Virus record (IMG/VR): IMGVR_UViG_3300038603_000026
Span: 1 to 40,218 of that record
Length of the DNA: 40,218 nt
Source: a virus
Lineage: Duplodnaviria > Caudoviricetes
Direction: 5' to 3' (one strand)
Within the stretch, counting starts at the first letter, position 1. Every line of letters starts with the position of its first letter. The position numbers and the translations under genes were made by a program. The notes under the pieces were generated by a model. The model saw nothing but the letters and a program-made list of their open reading frames with translations, ran no database searches and had not been told where the DNA came from. Positions 2,967 through 26,601 of the stretch are shown here, piece after piece.

Positions 2967-3254
2967 ATGAAAAACGCAGATAAACCAGCAAGTCCAGTTT
3001 TAACTTACGAGGACTACGAGTGCTCTGATGGCCTTCCTGCTGGTTACTCGGTAACAAAGCAGCGAGTTGTTAGTCATGGCGGCCTAACAAAGCGCGAGAT
3101 GTTCGCCATGCATGCGATGCAGGGTCTTGTGTCAAATAATATAGAAACAACCAAGCTCTATTTAAGTTCGACTGGTGAGGATGATATTAGCGTTATGTTT
3201 GCAAAAATGTCTGTTGAATTTGCCGATGCACTACTAGCGGAGTTAGATAAATGA
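2967..3254 (+). CDS. Conserved phage hypothetical protein
   Basis: GLTKREMFAMHAMQG motif, common in phage early genes; start moved to the ATG after the RBS. Confidence 0.65.
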   Translation: MKNADKPASPVLTYEDYECSDGLPAGYSVTKQRVVSHGGLTKREMFAMHAMQGLVSNNIETTKLYLSSTGEDDISVMFAKMSVEFADALLAELDK

Positions 3255-6941: not shown

Positions 6942-8051
6942 TTACTGTTTAACAGACCTAATTAATCTACCTAGTTCATTATCTTTCTTTTGCATTTCGG
7001 TCAATGTTAATGGTTTAAGGTTTTTCTCATCTATTGTCATCTTGGCGAATGAATCGGGAGTGATTGAACCCTCTTTGATGCCTTTGCGGAATGCTTTGCC
7101 TAAAGTTGGGCCCATAATGGCGTCTTGTGAGGCTGCATCTAGATTTTTCATTGCTTCGTAGTAGGTTTTCTTGCTCGACGTAGTGCCAGGTTCAAGCAAT
7201 CCACTTTCAGCGTCGCGAAAGTTTTCCGGCCTTTCTCCGCCATCGTCTTCGTGTTTATAGCGTGAGTCGACTTCGGGTATGTTTGCTGTCCTGCAATTTG
7301 GATGGAATGGTGCAAATGCCTTTCGATAGTTCGGGTCTGTTTTTAAAACAACTGTATTATCGATACCTCGGCAATACTGCGAAGTCTGACTATCTAAAGT
7401 TGCAATTCTGCGCGTCCCAATAACAATTGGTTCTTTAGCAAAGTAAGTCTCACGGGCAATGTTTGCATAGTGGTTGGTTCCGGTCTTTGCGATTGCTTTA
7501 GCTTGCTTGCGAGTCTTAACCACTCGATTATCAACTTCAGACATAACCTTCGCTGCAATCTCTCGCGTAGTTGTGCCGCTTACAAAGCCTTGAGCAACGA
7601 TGTTATCTATTTGCTCTCTATTCTGCCTAACGTAGTTGTTAAGCATCTGCGTGTAAGATGTGTAAGAGTCATCACCAAGCTTAATTAGAGTGTTGTTAGC
7701 GTTTGTGCGGATAACTGACTTAGACACAGCAGCAGCTTCTGTGGCTTGGTATAGACTGGATATGGTTTTAGCTTGAAAGTCTGCCTCATAGCTTCCTAGG
7801 TCTGCATTGTTTGCCTTTAGAGAATCCGTATAGCCTTTCAGCTCCTCAGTAACAATGTCAGCAATATCACTGAGTAACTTCTCACGACGGTTAGGTGTTA
7901 GATTTTTGCCGACCTCACGATTAATGCGAGCACTAATGCGCTCGCTCATTGAATCGATAAATGGTTTCGACTCGTTACCATATTGCGCAGCTAGGCGCTG
8001 TATATAAACGCCATGCTGAGCCTCAATAGCTGTTAGCTCCTCGTTAATCAT
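6942..8051 (-). CDS. Minor head / head morphogenesis protein (SPP1 gp7 / Mu F family)
   Basis: ATLDSQTSQYC ... PFHPNCRT motif. Confidence 0.9.
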   Translation of the reverse strand: MINEELTAIEAQHGVYIQRLAAQYGNESKPFIDSMSERISARINREVGKNLTPNRREKLLSDIADIVTEELKGYTDSLKANNADLGSYEADFQAKTISSLYQATEAAAVSKSVIRTNANNTLIKLGDDSYTSYTQMLNNYVRQNREQIDNIVAQGFVSGTTTREIAAKVMSEVDNRVVKTRKQAKAIAKTGTNHYANIARETYFAKEPIVIGTRRIATLDSQTSQYCRGIDNTVVLKTDPNYRKAFAPFHPNCRTANIPEVDSRYKHEDDGGERPENFRDAESGLLEPGTTSSKKTYYEAMKNLDAASQDAIMGPTLGKAFRKGIKEGSITPDSFAKMTIDEKNLKPLTLTEMQKKDNELGRLIRSVKQ

Positions 8052-8631
8052 TAAACCTCTCCATTATGGCAGATGCAATTCTTTGGTCTGTTATTTCTGA
8101 GCACAGCTTTTTTGCATAAGAAAGCTTCTTAACCCTCCAGGCCTCATGCGCAGAGTTTGGGTCCTTATATATGCCAATATATTCTTTTATTCCAGTGTCA
8201 GGATTGCTACACGATGCAGTATAGTAAACGCCATCACTGTGCAACGCTACACCTATAGGCAGCTTCCCTCTTGCTCTTCCGTGGTCATTTAGGAATCTGT
8301 TTAGTGATTTCGGAACAAATGCACATGTCTCTGGTGAATAAATCTTTTCACTTCCTGAGAGTATGTCTTTATCAAGCTCCATACCTTTCCAGTCTTGCTT
8401 TTCCATCCACAACTTAAAGTTAGAAAATGTGAGCCACTCATCGCAAACTTTACATCCTGCATAGGTTGGGTTTTTCTTGTTTGTCTTTTTGTTGTAGCAC
8501 CTTTCAAGCATTGATTTCCATCTAAAATAAAATGGACACCTAACTTGCTTACGTTTTCCGTCGACAACAACCGTAGGTGCTACTTTGTAGTCGGCGTCAT
8601 TAATGCCAACTCCGTGAACCAATCTTTTCAT
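8044..8631 (-). CDS. HNH-type homing endonuclease with C-terminal AP2-like DNA-binding domain
   Basis: WKSMLERCY...YAGCKVCDEWLTFSNF...LDKDIL...YSPETCAFVP...N; GAGGG RBS before the ATG at 8631. Confidence 0.85.
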   Translation of the reverse strand: MKRLVHGVGINDADYKVAPTVVVDGKRKQVRCPFYFRWKSMLERCYNKKTNKKNPTYAGCKVCDEWLTFSNFKLWMEKQDWKGMELDKDILSGSEKIYSPETCAFVPKSLNRFLNDHGRARGKLPIGVALHSDGVYYTASCSNPDTGIKEYIGIYKDPNSAHEAWRVKKLSYAKKLCSEITDQRIASAIMERFND

Positions 8632-8663
8632 ATCTATACCCTCATAGATTCCCGAATTGAAGA

Positions 8664-8718
8664 TTGAGGCAACACGCTTCGGGTGTGACATGCTTTCAGC
8701 CGCTAAACCTAGCCTCAA
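8664..8718 (-). promoter_or_regulatory. Structured RNA leader of the HNH gene
   Basis: Closing stem ttgaggc/gcctcaa with two internal hairpins; loop cccgaa is complementary to ttcggg just upstream of the RBS. Confidence 0.5.
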
Positions 8719-8726
8719 CATAAATA

Positions 8727-16443: not shown

Positions 16444-16941
16444 TTAAAATGGAATATCGTCATCGAAGTCCATTGGTGGCTCATTGTATTGCGGCAGCTG
16501 CTGTGGCGCTTGCTGCTGTGGTGGCGCGTATTGTTGCTGTGGTGCCTGTTGTGGTTGTTGCATTGGTTGTTGTTGCTGACCACCTTGAGACTTACCACCC
16601 AACATTTGCATAACACCGTTAAAGCCCTGAACAACAACTTCAGTTGTGTAACGGTCTTGCCCGTTTTGGTCTTGCCATTTGCGTGTTTGCAATTGACCTT
16701 CAATGTAAACCTGTGAGCCTTTGCGTAGGTACTCACCCGCAACTTCAGCAAGTTTTCCGAAGGTAGCTACACGGTGCCACTCTGTTTTTTCCTTTTGCTC
16801 ACCGGAAGCTTTGTCTCTCCATGACTCACTGGTTGCAACAGTGATATTTGCCACTGCCCCACCATTTGGCATGTAACGAATTGATGGATCATCACCAATA
16901 TTTCCAACCAAAATTACCTTATTTACACCCTTACTTCCCAT
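16444..16941 (-). CDS. ssb: Single-stranded DNA-binding protein
   Basis: [19 protein letters not shown]-terminal DFDDDIPF. Confidence 0.97.
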
Positions 16942-17461
16942 GATATTTACCCTTAACTATTGCATTTATTATATCCACGCATACACCATAAAGTTTCGCA
17001 ACTTCCTTTCTTGTTACACCTTCACCTCTTCCGTTTGCGCCAACAAATTTCATTTTCTTTATCTCACTTACCTGACTTTTGGTTAGTGCTTTTTCGTGAT
17101 TTAAGTTCTTTATTGATTTTTCATTCATTCTTCCTCGATTTACCATGTCGCGCATATTATCCTTTTGAGTGCCAACCTCAAGATGGTCAGGGTTTGTGCA
17201 TTCAGGGTTGTCGCATTTATGCCTGACAACCATTCCATCTGGTATTTCCCCATTTTCCTTCTCGTAACTAACCCTATGTGCTTTTTCTGGAGATCTTGAG
17301 TTTCCATGCCTACTTGAAAGAATTCCGTAACCCTTACCATCCTTAGATCCAGACCAAGCCCAACATCCATCAGATTTAACTTGAAATCTTTCTAACCTAT
17401 CAAATATTGGCGTAACTCTTTTCTTGGCAGGTCTGCCGCACTTTACAGATCCACTGCCCAT
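16931..17461 (-). CDS. HNH homing endonuclease (HNH_3-type)
   Basis: CWAWSG...AHRVSY...[25 protein letters not shown]-terminal HTH. Confidence 0.9.
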
Positions 17462-18042
17462 TACCATCCCTCTACTGTTTTAATTGATTGATCTAAGTTT
17501 GTTTGTGTTAGCGATTGAATCTGCCAAGTTTGGCAAACCTGCTCAACCGTATAGCCCTTACTAACAATTAAGTCTTGAAGCTTTTTAAGCTTTGCTTGTT
17601 CAACTTGGTTGTTTTGCTTTTGACCTGAAGACTTTTGTTGCCTTGTGTTTGATGCACCGTCATCATCTTCTTGAGCCATGCCAATCATTGCAGCAAAGCA
17701 GTATCGGCGCATGTACGTAATTGCCGAGCCAAGAACCTGGACAGGGTTTTTACCAGCAGCGCCCTGTAGCGTTGCATTAGGCATTACAGTCTCACTACGC
17801 ATCCATTGACCAGAGCTATGAGTCATCATTGTGATGATTGTTTGCTTATCATCCTTACAGCCCATCATTTGAGTTACAGCCAAACCATTTGAGGCTAGGA
17901 TAGGCTTTGCAGTGTTAATACAATTGGCAAGGTCTGAATAGTTGTAACCGTGACCCTGCGAGGACTTGCTAGAGTTTTCTAGATCACCTTGAAACTTAGC
18001 AAAAGCTGTAAAAAGCTCGCTAGTGCTTTCTGACATTTCCAT
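17461..18042 (-). CDS. erf: ERF-family single-strand annealing protein
   Basis: GSAITYMRRY...EDDDG motif. Confidence 0.9.
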   Translation of the reverse strand: MEMSESTSELFTAFAKFQGDLENSSKSSQGHGYNYSDLANCINTAKPILASNGLAVTQMMGCKDDKQTIITMMTHSSGQWMRSETVMPNATLQGAAGKNPVQVLGSAITYMRRYCFAAMIGMAQEDDDGASNTRQQKSSGQKQNNQVEQAKLKKLQDLIVSKGYTVEQVCQTWQIQSLTQTNLDQSIKTVEGW

Positions 18043-18044
18043 AA

Positions 18045-18212
18045 CTAACCCTTTTTCTCCATATCAACAACAAGAAGGTTTCGCATGTACTCAGCCTTAC
18101 CTATTGATTGACTTTCTAAATACCTATGCTGCTCTTCACTAAGCCCAACTGGCAGAGGTCGCTTAGCTGGCTTTCTAGGTGCGCTAACACGCTTTACTGG
18201 ACACTCTTTCAT
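18045..18212 (-). CDS. Small RHH/CopG-like regulator (55 aa, not in the ORF track)
   Basis: PLPVGLSEEQHRYLE...KAEYMRNLLVVDME; GGAG RBS. Confidence 0.6.
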   Translation of the reverse strand: MKECPVKRVSAPRKPAKRPLPVGLSEEQHRYLESQSIGKAEYMRNLLVVDMEKKG

Positions 18213-18945: not shown

Positions 18946-19872
18946 ATGATTCATGTAGGAAAGATATCAGGCGGAGAGACTTCGGGAGTTTTAATGGGAA
19001 TTCTTGAGTCCAAGAGGAAAAATGATGGATGGGATGTTGTTCACATTTACAACGAGACCGGACAAGAGGCTGATGAGACATACGAGTTTCTCAGAAGTCT
19101 TGCGGAATACTACGATACAGAAATAATTTGCCTCAAGCCGTTAATCTCAAATATTAAGAACATAGGCGTTACATGCAAAGTTATATCTAGTGATGGTATT
19201 GGCCATGACAAAACAATCATAGATGACTTGTTTGAGTCTTACGGAACAATGACCATAAACTCAAGAATGTGCACCAGCAGAATGAAATCAGAGCCAACCT
19301 CTAAGTATTGCAACGCTGTATTTGGAAAGAGAAACTACAAGTTGTGGCTTGGCATTAGAGCTGATGAGCAAGCGAGAATAAAGGAATTTAACGACCAAAT
19401 GGACTTATTCCAAGCGGAGATGAAAAGAAAAAAACAAAAACCAGAGTGTGAAATTGGATATATGGCGCAGCTATCTGACTTTACAAAGCAGGATGTTAAG
19501 GATTATTGGTCAGAAATGCCGTTCAGACTAAAGATTCACGACAAGCCATTTCTTGGAAACTGCTTATTCTGCCCTCACAAGGAAATAAGCAGAGTTGCGT
19601 TAGCGGCCAGGTACTACCCAGAAAGGGCTGAAGAGTTTGTTAAGCAATGCGAATCAGAATCCGTAAAGGAGCATAATAGGGTTGATAAAGATGGAAATGC
19701 AATGCCTAGCTGTATGATGTATAGAGGATTTCATAGCTTAAGAAGCATCATTGATACATACAAAGAGTTCCCAACAGAAGAACTTGAAGCTCAAATATCC
19801 AGAGGAAACAAGTTTAAAGATACGGGCTGCGGTTCATCTTGCATAGATTACGGGCAACTAACAATGTTCTAA
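18946..19872 (+). CDS. PAPS-reductase-family (PP-loop) protein, candidate DNA-modification enzyme
   Basis: ISGGETSG, ETGQE..ETYEFL, CTSRMK, LGIRADE, GNCLFC. Confidence 0.85.
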   Translation: MIHVGKISGGETSGVLMGILESKRKNDGWDVVHIYNETGQEADETYEFLRSLAEYYDTEIICLKPLISNIKNIGVTCKVISSDGIGHDKTIIDDLFESYGTMTINSRMCTSRMKSEPTSKYCNAVFGKRNYKLWLGIRADEQARIKEFNDQMDLFQAEMKRKKQKPECEIGYMAQLSDFTKQDVKDYWSEMPFRLKIHDKPFLGNCLFCPHKEISRVALAARYYPERAEEFVKQCESESVKEHNRVDKDGNAMPSCMMYRGFHSLRSIIDTYKEFPTEELEAQISRGNKFKDTGCGSSCIDYGQLTMF

Positions 19873-23547: not shown

Positions 23548-23650
23548 ACTTTTAACAGATAGGTGAAGAGATGAAGAAATATAGGGTATTCGAAATAGTG
23601 TGAGTATCGATTAATAAACATACAGAATTGATACCCACACTTAACAAACC

Positions 23651-24973
23651 CTATTCGTGTGTATTTGGTTGTTTTTCAAGCAAAGTAACCATGTCTCTAA
23701 ACAGTGCTTTAAAGGCTCGATGTCTTAAGCCATGCATGGTTACTTTTGGATCGTCTTTCTTCAACAATTCAAACAGTGGATCATAAGTTGGTTTGTTCAA
23801 TGACTTCATTGACACTTCTAAGCCGCCTTTGTTGTAAAGCAACTTCGCTCTAAGCACTTCAAAGCTATAACCGCGACCATTCCTAAACACGCCCTTAATA
23901 GTGTTATTCAGACTCTCTGTAACAGCGTTGGTGTAGGGATAGTCCCACCAATTGAAGATAGGCTCATGCCAGTTATCAACGGCTCGTATCGCGTCCTTGA
24001 AGTATTTCCTGACAGATGGTGTAGATACTGCTTTCCAGTTCTCCCAATAGTCCTCAGCTTCCTTTCTGGTTGGCATATCCCACATATCGAGAAATGCTTC
24101 CTTAGCGTTATACACTTCCATCAACGTTGGGTATTCCTCTGTCCAGAAATGGAATGACGCCAGCTCGTTTAAGCCTTTGATATTGGCTCTACGTTTAAGC
24201 AGTATCTTTCGGTCATTCTTGAGCTTCTTACGCTCCTTGTCTGATAGTTCGGCTCGTATCGCCTTACGTGCTTTCTCCATGGCTTCGCCAGCCATCTTAG
24301 CAACGTGAAAGCGGTCTATAACGACAACGGAATTAGGCAATAGCTGTTTCACTGCACGGTAATACGGTCGCCACATATCGATACAGACGATCTCAATATC
24401 TTTCCATCCATTCAGCCTCATAATGGCTTTCTGAGTGGCATCCTGAGACCTATCCTTACGCATATCGAGTAGAGTTCTACGCTCAATATCCGTCATGACA
24501 AGGTGCATCTTCTTGCTGAAATGAGTCTCATCGATACCAAGAACGCGAGGAGCAAGCCAGTCATGCTTACCTTCGATAATATCTACGTAGTTGGCGAATA
24601 CGTTGCGTATAGTACCTTCCGTGATACCCATTTCAGTGGCTACATGTGTAAACGGCACTTTTCCACACATTCGCATGATGTAATCTTCAGCTCGTTTAGT
24701 CATGCGAAAATCATTAGAGAGCCAGTCCAGTTGTTCAAAGCAAGTCTTGCCACAATCCTTGCAGCGGAGCCGCTTTCTATCGAACTGAATCTTGATGGTT
24801 TTTCCGTACATGCGAGTGTCGTTGTAAGGTTGGTTTACTTTGCCGACGATTACTGTATTGACTGATCCGCACTCGGAACAAGTGCGGTTAGGAGATATAG
24901 ATTGAGCGTGGAATATACAGTGTTCGTCATACTCTTCACGCTCAATAACTTTCAGGTTTTCAATGTTTAGCAT
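23651..24973 (-). CDS. tnpA: ISL3-family DDE transposase
   Basis: Zn finger CSECG...CKDCG, HTH, LGIDE, CIDMW, IDRFH, TNAVTESLNNTIK. Confidence 0.95.
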   Translation of the reverse strand: MLNIENLKVIEREEYDEHCIFHAQSISPNRTCSECGSVNTVIVGKVNQPYNDTRMYGKTIKIQFDRKRLRCKDCGKTCFEQLDWLSNDFRMTKRAEDYIMRMCGKVPFTHVATEMGITEGTIRNVFANYVDIIEGKHDWLAPRVLGIDETHFSKKMHLVMTDIERRTLLDMRKDRSQDATQKAIMRLNGWKDIEIVCIDMWRPYYRAVKQLLPNSVVVIDRFHVAKMAGEAMEKARKAIRAELSDKERKKLKNDRKILLKRRANIKGLNELASFHFWTEEYPTLMEVYNAKEAFLDMWDMPTRKEAEDYWENWKAVSTPSVRKYFKDAIRAVDNWHEPIFNWWDYPYTNAVTESLNNTIKGVFRNGRGYSFEVLRAKLLYNKGGLEVSMKSLNKPTYDPLFELLKKDDPKVTMHGLRHRAFKALFRDMVTLLEKQPNTHE

Positions 24974-25127
24974 TGCTTAGCTTTTCTTTTGCTTGAGATA
25001 AAAACTCATTTTCAAGACCTTCAAGCATGTCGCAGTCATCCAGATCGATTCCATTAGCAACGATGTCTTTTAACTCGCTCTCAGTTGCATTTTTTAGTCT
25101 GTCGGCTACGTATTCAGTAATGTTCAT
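24960..25127 (-). CDS. Transposon passenger ORF4, small acidic protein (55 aa)
   Basis: GGAG RBS; overlaps the transposase start. Confidence 0.7.
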   Translation of the reverse strand: MNITEYVADRLKNATESELKDIVANGIDLDDCDMLEGLENEFLSQAKEKLSNAKH

Positions 25128-25137
25128 AATTTCTCCA

Positions 25138-25314
25138 TTACATCTGAATGTCGATGCGATCAATCTCACCGCTCTCTTTCAAATAAACGTCAACACCATC
25201 AATTTCAACAAGTGCGCCACCATCATCAAAGAAGGTAATTTCGACATCATCAAACTCTTTTGCTTGCTCAAAAATGCTTTTTGCACAATTTTGAATCCTT
25301 TGAATTTTCGACAC
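25138..25314 (-). CDS. Transposon passenger ORF3, small acidic protein (~58 aa)
   Basis: GAGG RBS before a GTG at 25314. Confidence 0.65.
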   Translation of the reverse strand: MSKIQRIQNCAKSIFEQAKEFDDVEITFFDDGGALVEIDGVDVYLKESGEIDRIDIQM

Positions 25315-25324
25315 AATTTCCTCT

Positions 25325-25507
25325 CTATGATTGATTTGTTTTAAGAACATTAGACTCAATCAACGAGTCAATCAAATCTGGTATTTTGTACTCGTTTACA
25401 TTAGCCAATAGAGCCATGATTGCAGCAGTTGCAGTCGCTTCATCCTTTGCTGCATTAAGCAGTGATTCCATGATTTGTTCTGGGCTAGCTTTCATGCTTT
25501 TCTCCAT
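25325..25507 (-). CDS. Transposon passenger ORF2, helical protein (60 aa)
   Basis: Starts immediately after the ORF1 stop. Confidence 0.65.
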   Translation of the reverse strand: MEKSMKASPEQIMESLLNAAKDEATATAAIMALLANVNEYKIPDLIDSLIESNVLKTNQS

Positions 25508-25711
25508 CTATTTTGATTTTTTATTGCTTTCACGAACTGCGTGGAAAGCCTCTGCGAAATCATCATAATCCGTGCAATCTGGATCATACGGGTTTGCCAT
25601 TGGACAACCAGATTCTGCGACCATTCTTCCAAGTTCAGCGGCAGTATCAAACTCAAATGTGAACCCTTTGTGCTTACAACGATGCTTGGTTTCTTTGTGC
25701 CATCTAGCCAT
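25508..25711 (-). CDS. Transposon passenger ORF1 (~67 aa)
   Basis: First ORF after the extended -10 TGCTATATT inside the element end. Confidence 0.65.
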   Translation of the reverse strand: MARWHKETKHRCKHKGFTFEFDTAAELGRMVAESGCPMANPYDPDCTDYDDFAEAFHAVRESNKKSK

Positions 25712-26601
25712 TGATATACTCACTTTTTTACGAATTGAACACCAATTGAATATAGCATTACTATGAACTCACGTACACACTATTTTACGAATACCCGAAA
25801 TATAAATGCATAGTTCCAGTTAGTGGCGGCAAAGATTCTCAAGCTTGCCTGAAAATGGCAGTTGAAGAGTTTGGTTCAGATAATGTGTTGGGGTTGTTTT
25901 GTGATACCAAGTTTGAGCACCCATTAACGTACCAGCACGTTGAAAACCTAAAAGAATACTACGGCGTTGATACTCACACTCTTAACGGTGGTGACGTTGT
26001 TAGCGAGTGTAACAAGAACGGAAGATTTCCAAGCGGTACGGCTAGGTTCTGCACTGACAAGTTAAAGATTAGGGAGACTAAGTTTTTCCTCAAAGAATAC
26101 AGCGAGGAACACGGCGCGGTTCAAGTTTGGTATGGAATGCGTACAGATGAGAGCCAAGAGCGTGCAAAGCGATACCAATACAGAGACCCTGATGAATTAT
26201 ACGAACCTCATATTCTCCTTGGAAATTACCCAAAGTACCTAGGAAAAAATGGCGTTAGATATCGAGTTCCTATTGTTGACTGGACGCGAGATGAGGTTGT
26301 TGAATACTTAGAAGGCAAACACAATCCTTTGTATGACATGGGATTCGATCGAGTTGGCTGTTTTCCTTGTTTGGCTTCAGGTGACGCCTGGAAAATCAAA
26401 GCATTTACTCACGATGAGTTTGGCAAAAGTCAGTTGATAAAGGTTAGGCAGATTGAAGAGGAAACGGGCAAGTCAGTATTTACCAGTAACATAGGTAAGG
26501 CATTTAACTCTGGATGCATGATAAGCAAAAACCAGATAGACATGTTCGAGCTTGGTGATAGCAGTCACGGGTGTAGAATTTGCGAGATTTAAGGAGTTGC
26601 C

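Follow-up and report, generated by a model that had tools for sequence, protein, structure and literature searches.

An ISL3 transposon with a cargo slot interrupts a phage gene and belongs to a phage-biased family with variable passengers

What is a transposon that carries four small genes doing inside a gene of a phage, and do its relatives favor phage DNA as well? These questions are raised by the virus record IMGVR_UViG_3300038603_000026 (Caudoviricetes), whose 40,218 nucleotides, referred to here as the window, contain an ISL3-family element at 23584–25796. A first-pass annotation had pictured this element as an insertion from a transposon family that might specialize in hopping into phages and delivering small genes. 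We consider it probable that an ISL3 element with a cargo slot moved as a unit into a phage gene, that the element is promoter-driven and likely repressed by its transposase, and that its passengers likely came from phage genomes by recombination. It is likely that the element family ferries genes between phages.

The boundaries of the element could be placed to the base. It is 2,213 bp long and occurs once in the window, and GGGTATTCG opens both of its ends. End comparison located the right-end terminal inverted repeat, downstream of the transposase, at 23584..23607 (+ strand) and the left-end repeat at 25773..25796 (− strand); the terminal inverted repeat covers 28 nt with 75% complementarity and is the longest of 59 in the region. 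By flank comparison the target-site duplication (23576..23583 and 25797..25804, both + strand) is exactly 8 bp, as lengths of 7 or 9–14 bp do not fit, and the duplicated 8-mer is found on the + strand of the window only at 23576 and 25797. The ends enclose a 440-amino-acid DDE transposase (23651..24973, − strand), identified by Pfam (DDE_Tnp_ISL3, E 5e-57, plus helix-turn-helix and Zn-ribbon domains; PF01610/PF13542/PF14690), by NCBIfam (transpos_ISL3, NF033550, 284.8 bits with a cut-off of 180) and by alignment, in which D148, D221 and E353 are invariant in 6/6 aligned relatives. The element thus has the features of the ISL3 family, namely a DDE transposase of 400–440 amino acids, imperfect repeats starting with GG, and an 8-bp duplication at an AT-rich site, and the first-pass description of GGG ends, a perfect duplication and an intact transposase agrees with the boundaries, the flanks and both profile libraries. 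A transporter insertion sequence (tIS) is defined, in the available part of the source, as an insertion sequence (IS) with passenger genes unrelated to transposition inside its ends (PMC9330008). The window element holds such passengers within both ends, and they travel with it. By all features examined, 23584–25796 is an intact ISL3 element of the tIS type. Elements of the ISL3 family transpose through a circular intermediate with joined ends (copy-out/paste-in); no joined-end circle junction was found in the 8 contig sets searched, contig assembly being a step that drops rare forms. Both junctions with phage DNA, which the first-pass annotation had proposed to check with reads, lie on single contigs with zero differences in 4/4 runs (all from one study, possibly the source of the record).

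The target of the insertion was a phage gene. Deleting the element together with one duplicated 8-mer restores a 266-amino-acid PAPS-reductase-like open reading frame (ORF) from an ATG at 23571, with the insertion point after codon 4. The rebuilt start agrees with the N-termini of uninterrupted homologues (19 translated from 36 viral loci). The 5' end of this DndC/SspD-like gene (4 codons, 23571..23583, + strand) was assigned from the empty-site ORF and the homologue N-termini, and the rest (25805..26592, + strand) from the reconstruction and profile matches. The comparison with empty sites that had been suggested gave a uniform answer, in that none of 36/36 viral loci of the gene family has an ISL3 transposase nearby. 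The first in-frame ATG of the remnant is at 25855, past the SGGKDS motif, so the remnant is likely inactive. The interrupted gene and the promoter- and operator-like left end discussed below are additions to the first-pass account. Separately, we note that the interrupted gene matches DndC models weakly, that a second, different PAPS-reductase-like gene is still present at 18946–19872, and that both may encode DNA-modification enzymes; the same enzyme class is also cargo of the sister elements L006 and L028.

The distance from the left end to the transposase start is 823 bp, close to the 800 bp first estimated, and this space holds four tightly packed ORFs that abut or overlap one another. Their best starts give products of 67, 60, 58 and 55 amino acids, shorter than the raw ORF calls. 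ORF1 (67 amino acids, 25508..25711, − strand) belongs to a phage gene family with homologues in 28 phage records, all below 60% identity (53% in ValSw3-3). None of the 25 ORF1 records listed is among the phage records with a transposase of the clade described below, and ORF1 of ValSw3-3 has no transposase beside it. ORF2 (60 amino acids, 25325..25507, − strand) has homologues in 3 representatives at 58–73% identity (E<=1e-10). Homologues of ORF3 (58 amino acids, 25138..25314, − strand) form 12 clusters of 58–59 amino acids at 69–100% identity, and none was matched in annotated phages; ORF2, ORF3 and ORF4 had no match in viral contigs. A P2-like prophage of genome G270 has a free homologue of ORF3, flanked by the replication gene and the late activator; 155/177 bases are alike from start to stop codon and only 17/60 and 14/60 outside the gene. 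The 19.9 kb around it (about 10 kb each way) contained neither a transposase nor a left end. The sister element L012 occupies the same region of another P2-like prophage. Seven of eight matches in the search that turned up this free ORF3 were dropped, being 31–41 bp long and at chance level. ORF4 (55 amino acids, 24960..25127, − strand) overlaps the transposase start and is common to the element of Vibrio phage Seahorse and to run X9; its homologues form 12 clusters at 80–95% identity, and the 4/12 that were read end in the same overlap. Between the window and Seahorse, ORF4 shows 9 synonymous and 4 non-synonymous codon changes, and it seems, on this comparison, to be a long-term passenger. 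More generally, the cargo ORFs retain their length and synonymous change predominates. None of ORFs 1–4 has a Pfam, PHROG or PADLOC family, and their atlas scores are below 0.9 or lacking.

Evidence that such elements move together with their cargo came from other assemblies. Run X5, from an isolate in another study, has a 31-kb contig on which the full 2,213 bp, differing at 56 positions, is bordered by new 8-bp repeats, which bears out the earlier view of a mobile, transporter-type ISL3. Run X7 has the same ends and transposase and a slot filled by 498 different bases, and in run X9, whose pieces lie on separate contigs, ORF4 is kept with 584 different bases upstream. Run X6 yielded pieces only and was excluded. 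The oyster phages K256 and K251 g2 both carry a sister element whose cargo is a Dam-like methyltransferase; its two copies, at different sites, are 99.92% identical over 2,500 bp. The two phages otherwise have only a tail block in common (80%). Phage K303, near-identical to K256 at the insertion site, shows precisely the empty site, the overlap being 8 bp. These data show that the sister element hopped recently between two unrelated phages. As a side observation, the X9 sister element is apparently flanked by the window's 8-mer at another locus, and the X5 duplication equals that of L015, a possible target preference.

Relatives were sought in phage, plasmid, viral and genome collections, which gave 16 elements with mapped ends, the window's included. 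An 8-bp duplication is present at 15/15 sites that have both flanks (L011 lacks its left flank and was outside this check; L008/L084, a 5'-truncated remnant, was outside all counts). Target sites are 78% AT compared with 56% in the flanks and have no consensus. The transposases are 63–98% identical and fall in one 13-row clade with a value of 100 in the SH-like approximate likelihood ratio test (SH-aLRT), to which 36 protein clusters belong; the tree was a quick one with long-branch warnings, and only this clade, with ISPst2 and ISPpu12 not among the rows, is relied upon. All members share one layout: a left end of ~81 bp, cargo from about base 82, a cargo end at the transposase start codon, and a right-end hairpin. 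In the window this palindrome lies at 23597..23642 (− strand; z −4.4) and is likely a terminator or a second transposase site. Hairpins with z from −2.0 to −4.6 were obtained in 8/8 elements folded; RNAalifold gave no right-end consensus on the unshifted alignment because the hairpin arms are offset by one base.

The contents of the slot differ from element to element. We counted 12 cargo sets in the 16 elements and no empty element (0/16), so the expectation of the same ends elsewhere with variable cargo was borne out. The cargo comprises Dam-like, N6/N4 and phrog_954 methyltransferases, a PAPS-reductase/SspD-like enzyme, phrog_631, and small genes without assigned function; its PHROG families are 56, 67, 954, 424, 631, 23977 and 24515. 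The idea that only small genes are delivered does not hold, as the cargo is often a DNA-modification enzyme of 170–345 amino acids. The window's transposase is 98% identical in protein to those of elements L009 and L010, which carry unrelated cargo. Elements whose transposase genes are 93–95% alike have left-end spacers only ~53–61% alike, and similarity along the transposase genes follows a mosaic pattern; together these findings indicate reshuffling between the transposase on one side and the left end with its cargo on the other. The cargo of L006 is frameshifted, and the transposases of L010 and L014 are shortened. Neither the border of cargo and transposase nor the borders of successive cargo genes showed a conserved site.

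Several further observations concern this family. Between L006 and L028 the inter-motif spacer is 73% alike, yet the cargo is 97% and the transposase 95% alike, as if the promoter region changed fast. L015 includes a 555-bp non-autonomous copy (7663–8217) with both ends and an 8-bp duplication on a phage-plasmid contig, holding one 76-amino-acid cargo gene and only the last 38 transposase codons. The 100-amino-acid cargo protein of phage Val-yong3 falls into a cluster with transposases and is met again on Vibrio contigs of ~40 kb, which hints at a cargo–transposase fusion in some member. A lone right-end-like remnant (82%) lies at G002:C111:222702-222751 (L045), 27 kb from the Alteromonas copy, and its partner end was not found. 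Among viral contigs the left-end pattern gave 5 matches, of which 2 were known elements and 3 were discarded as chance matches without transposase. Scanning metagenomes yielded nothing new beyond three distant fragments and a duplicate of L006; genome searches at the order level (2/401) and in Shewanella (1/148) gave zero new loci, and no element like that of phage Fraca was found in 5,426 complete E. coli genomes.

The layout extends to more distant relatives. At 34–40% transposase identity it recurs with 8-bp duplications in phage Bcep22, Bacillus phage BSP9 (where the cargo is a methyltransferase), Caulobacter phage DMCA and L086, and at the same identity on conjugative plasmids of V. harveyi and P. 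putida. Pseudomonas phage HB2107-3I (L161, 225–4231) carries tandem ISL3 transposases, each with an upstream gene, the first of which encodes an antirepressor/Rha-like product; ends were not found there. L164, L166 and L014 lie near traI, mobA or DUF2913 genes, possibly leading regions of plasmids or of integrative and conjugative elements.

Does the clade favor phages, or does it merely share the habits of other ISL3 elements? In 401 Vibrionaceae genomes the clade has 5 copies: one in a P2-like prophage, three on phage or phage-plasmid contigs and one at a core chromosomal site. Copies in phage DNA thus number 4/5, compared with 0/40 for ordinary ISL3 elements (Fisher p 3e-5 by replicon); under a strict 6-kb rule the numbers are 2/5 and 0/40 (p 0.01), and both p values overstate independence because the controls are mostly two ISL3 lineages read over 6 kb on each side. 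Ordinary ISL3 elements passed the cut-off in 87/401 genomes, and the control consisted of the best match of 40 genomes, with IS-only contigs skipped and 282/283 ORFs within 6 kb scanned. No head, tail or lysis family was found within 6 kb on either side in 40/40 controls. Nearly all ordinary ISL3 elements measured (32/33) span 1,281–1,349 bp and are cargo-less. They are often multi-copy, as opposed to one left end per genome in 5/5 clade genomes. Temperate phages and phage-plasmids make up most of the family's phage hosts. Because chromosome, island and plasmid copies exist, the clade is phage-biased rather than phage-only, so that the proposed specialization on phages stands as a bias and falls as an exclusive habit.

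The alternative that survives best, although we consider it unlikely, is an ordinary transporter IS with no link to phages, inserting at random into AT-rich DNA and persisting where selection is weak, as in prophages and islands, with cargo that is neutral debris. The AT-rich targets without a consensus would fit this explanation, as would the copies on chromosome, islands and plasmid, the disrupted host genes, the frameshifted cargo and the shortened transposases. It does not readily explain why ordinary ISL3 elements of the same genomes are cargo-less and in no sampled case (0/40) near phage genes while no clade member is empty, or why cargo ORFs conserve their length, change mainly at synonymous positions and come largely from phage families.

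How might the passengers be expressed and exchanged? The left end of the relatives has a fixed order. Its terminal repeat is followed by TGTACR, which a 17-base spacer separates from a TATAAT-like box; next come another copy of the end motif and the first cargo start. In the window the predicted sigma-70 promoter (TGTACG, 17 nt, TG-n-TATATT) lies at 25749..25777 (− strand), its −10 box at the offset fixed in relatives. That one offset collects 84/96 matches in the 16 left ends and was reached by 0/2000 shuffles, which ignore relatedness. A generic promoter scan, which performed at chance level, did not list it. The predicted promoter very probably works, and on arrival of the DNA in a new cell it would produce a single transcript that covers the four passengers and the transposase. 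The internal copy of the end motif (25717..25734, − strand), just before the first cargo start, equals the terminal copy at 16/18 bases, whereas seven ordinary ISL3 elements reach 7–9/15. This copy follows closely on the predicted start, the expected place for an operator, so the transposase is likely self-silencing. The chances seem evenly balanced that the motif is a transposase operator producing a burst in naive cells, an arrangement that would explain why copy numbers are low, why infectious DNA is favored and why so many cargoes are DNA-modification enzymes; the transposase would then hold its operon silent in established cells, with expression starting in a cell that has no transposase.

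For the exchange of cargo, we lean slightly toward phage recombinases or illegitimate recombination, with selection for read-through into the transposase keeping only whole-gene swaps; the phage of the window encodes both Erf and SSB. Multi-gene cargo may grow by one element landing inside another, followed by recombination between transposases, a route to which we assign an even chance from the arrangement in Seahorse. There (L001, 2741–5375) a nested second left end at 3139, with its terminal base changed and overlapping a further 32-amino-acid ORF, suggests such an element-in-element landing.

A different mechanism, which we regard as quite improbable, is that the transposase itself loads whole genes with the internal motif as a recombination site, in the manner of an integron. 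It draws on the fact that in all elements the cargo starts within a few bases of this motif and ends at the transposase start, and on the way in which the left end and cargo act as a module. Against this, the junctions have no conserved site, the free ORF3 has no adjoining motif, and the mosaic identity of the transposase genes points to ordinary homologous recombination. An integron-like cassette system proper was set aside: the cargo genes have no flanking recombination site each, and no integrase lies inside the ends.

The phage itself bears on a third explanation. The record is a complete 40.2-kb virus with 127-bp terminal repeats, and no long ORF crosses the terminal repeat. The host is probably Vibrio, because the replication genes match Vibrio phages in 34/36 records; the Seahorse helicase is 69% identical to that of this phage. 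The phage had been described as lacking a visible integrase or repressor. No integrase was found among the 58/103 listed ORFs scanned (a non-overlapping set), so that this part stands, while two weak helix-turn-helix matches make the absence of a repressor less sure. These are two ORFs at 1876–2663 (− strand) with weak helix-turn-helix/MarR-like matches, adjoining a divergent gene group, and are possible regulators. A 55-amino-acid ORF at 18045–18212 (− strand), where the recombination and replication operons diverge, looks ribbon-helix-helix-like by eye and has no PHROG match. Two HNH endonuclease genes lie at 8044–8721 (between the portal and head morphogenesis genes) and at 16931–17467 (between erf and ssb).

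The absence of an integrase from the ORFs scanned invites the explanation that the phage domesticated the element for integration or lysogeny, as in the account of phage Seahorse, which lysogenizes and whose paper, in the available portion of its main text, does not use the word integrase (PMC7012835). We consider this highly improbable. The ends flank 2.2 kb and not the genome, the insertion splits a gene, phages with sister elements own an integrase or a Par system, and near-identical phages occur without the element, which largely refutes domestication. Least credible of all is a chimeric assembly: although the four spanning runs come from one study, possibly the source, it would have to produce an exact 8-bp duplication, a rebuilt gene and single spanning contigs in 4/4 runs, with the same element found elsewhere in another study.

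Several observations weigh against the reading we prefer, that of a cargo-bearing element moved as a unit into a phage gene, in addition to the cautions attached above to the shuffles and the p values. No near-identical cargo donor was found (best 87%), searches for the cargo of L003, L009 and L010 included, and because no donor above 87% turned up the capture junctions are unreadable. The cargo genes of the window have no family, the insertion breaks a phage gene, and no benefit to the phage is apparent. Several element-length Logan contigs hint at multi-copy states, and element ends were not found at 6/12 distant loci tested. Of 8 genome copies, three lie outside phages, as does one plasmid copy (L009, L010, L014, L028); one copy in a core chromosomal region interrupts a GGDEF gene, others are in islands and on a 292-kb plasmid, and insertions disrupt genes in several hosts. 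Among 58 listed NCBI members, 27 are on contigs >100 kb and 17 on contigs of 30–50 kb, figures that describe contig sizes and not contexts.

A wider proposal, which we put forward only tentatively and hold to be doubtful as a whole, is that this ISL3 lineage, spread across Proteobacteria and Bacillota, would be a dedicated gene shuttle of infectious DNA. Its self-repressed promoter would fire only in naive cells, and the element would move between co-resident or superinfecting phages, even the lytic BSP9, delivering expression-ready anti-restriction enzymes and small anti-defense proteins. If so, the small cargo ORFs would form a pre-selected library of early counter-defense genes. The leading regions of plasmids are rich in genes of the DNA-modification type, according to the available part of one report (PMC11541004).

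The family matters in other respects. For the travel of small accessory genes between unrelated phages, the clade offers a recognizable vehicle that has defined limits, a predicted promoter and a slot; transposases are reportedly very rare among phage-exchanged genes, in the available part of another study (PMC10879196). The slot marks candidate early anti-defense genes for screening. Cultured systems exist in the pair K256/K303, with and without the methyltransferase-bearing copy, and in the isolated phages Seahorse, Val-yong3, Fraca, Bcep22 and BSP9. The results also correct an annotation habit in which a transposase of this kind is read as a sign of lysogeny.

Precedents exist for parts of this picture. 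The Seahorse ISL3 element has a transposase 90% identical to the window's, the same ends and ORF4 in common. Its paper treats the ISL3 gene as an integration gene and reports lysogeny, and makes no mention, in the portion available, of ends, cargo or the nested second left end (PMC7012835). Bcep22 is listed as an IS-bearing phage in the accessible part of one report (PMC3091744), and its putative insertion sequence (GenBank AY349011) resembles the clade in its 2,158 bp, its 8-bp duplication and its two small genes followed by an ISL3 transposase, with the first cargo start at +81 and an internal end-motif copy. It differs in a 34% transposase identity and in other cargo, and it is on record as a single odd IS and not as a family. 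The NCBI names of clade members carry no IS name, whereas the neighbors ISVa11 and ISVa13 do. ISPst9, an ISL3-type element, is reportedly induced to transpose by conjugative contact, a precedent for movement linked to transfer between cells. We found no description of a phage-biased, variable-cargo ISL3 group in a literature whose coverage left most subscription papers, supplements and ISfinder outside.

ISPst2 is an ISL3 tIS of 2,985 bp with two passengers, a permease and an ArsR regulator, in the available part of its description (PMC6305408). As far as that description goes, it is like the clade in its family, its ends (GGGTAT-CGGA, much alike), its 8-bp duplications and its passengers inside the ends, and unlike it in a fixed permease/ArsR pair and a multi-copy state in chromosomes and plasmids, the comparison being by description only. 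Measured against that partial account, clade cargo varies between 98%-identical transposases, is phage-type, and sits in a slot ahead of the transposase. ISPpu12 is presumably also an ISL3 member. In the part of its report available, it shares with the clade 24-bp imperfect repeats, 8-bp duplications, passengers, an internal −35/−10 promoter and a broad host range, and it differs in fixed metal-related passengers (czcD), multi-copy occurrence, composite transposons and the lack of a reported phage bias (PMC3735179). The fixed regulator and transporter passengers typical of ISPst2 and ISPpu12 are absent from the clade cargo sets that have a family, among the 12 sets. The clade is thus a variant of the ISPst2/ISPpu12 type of transporter IS, set apart by variable phage-derived cargo and by its bias toward phages.

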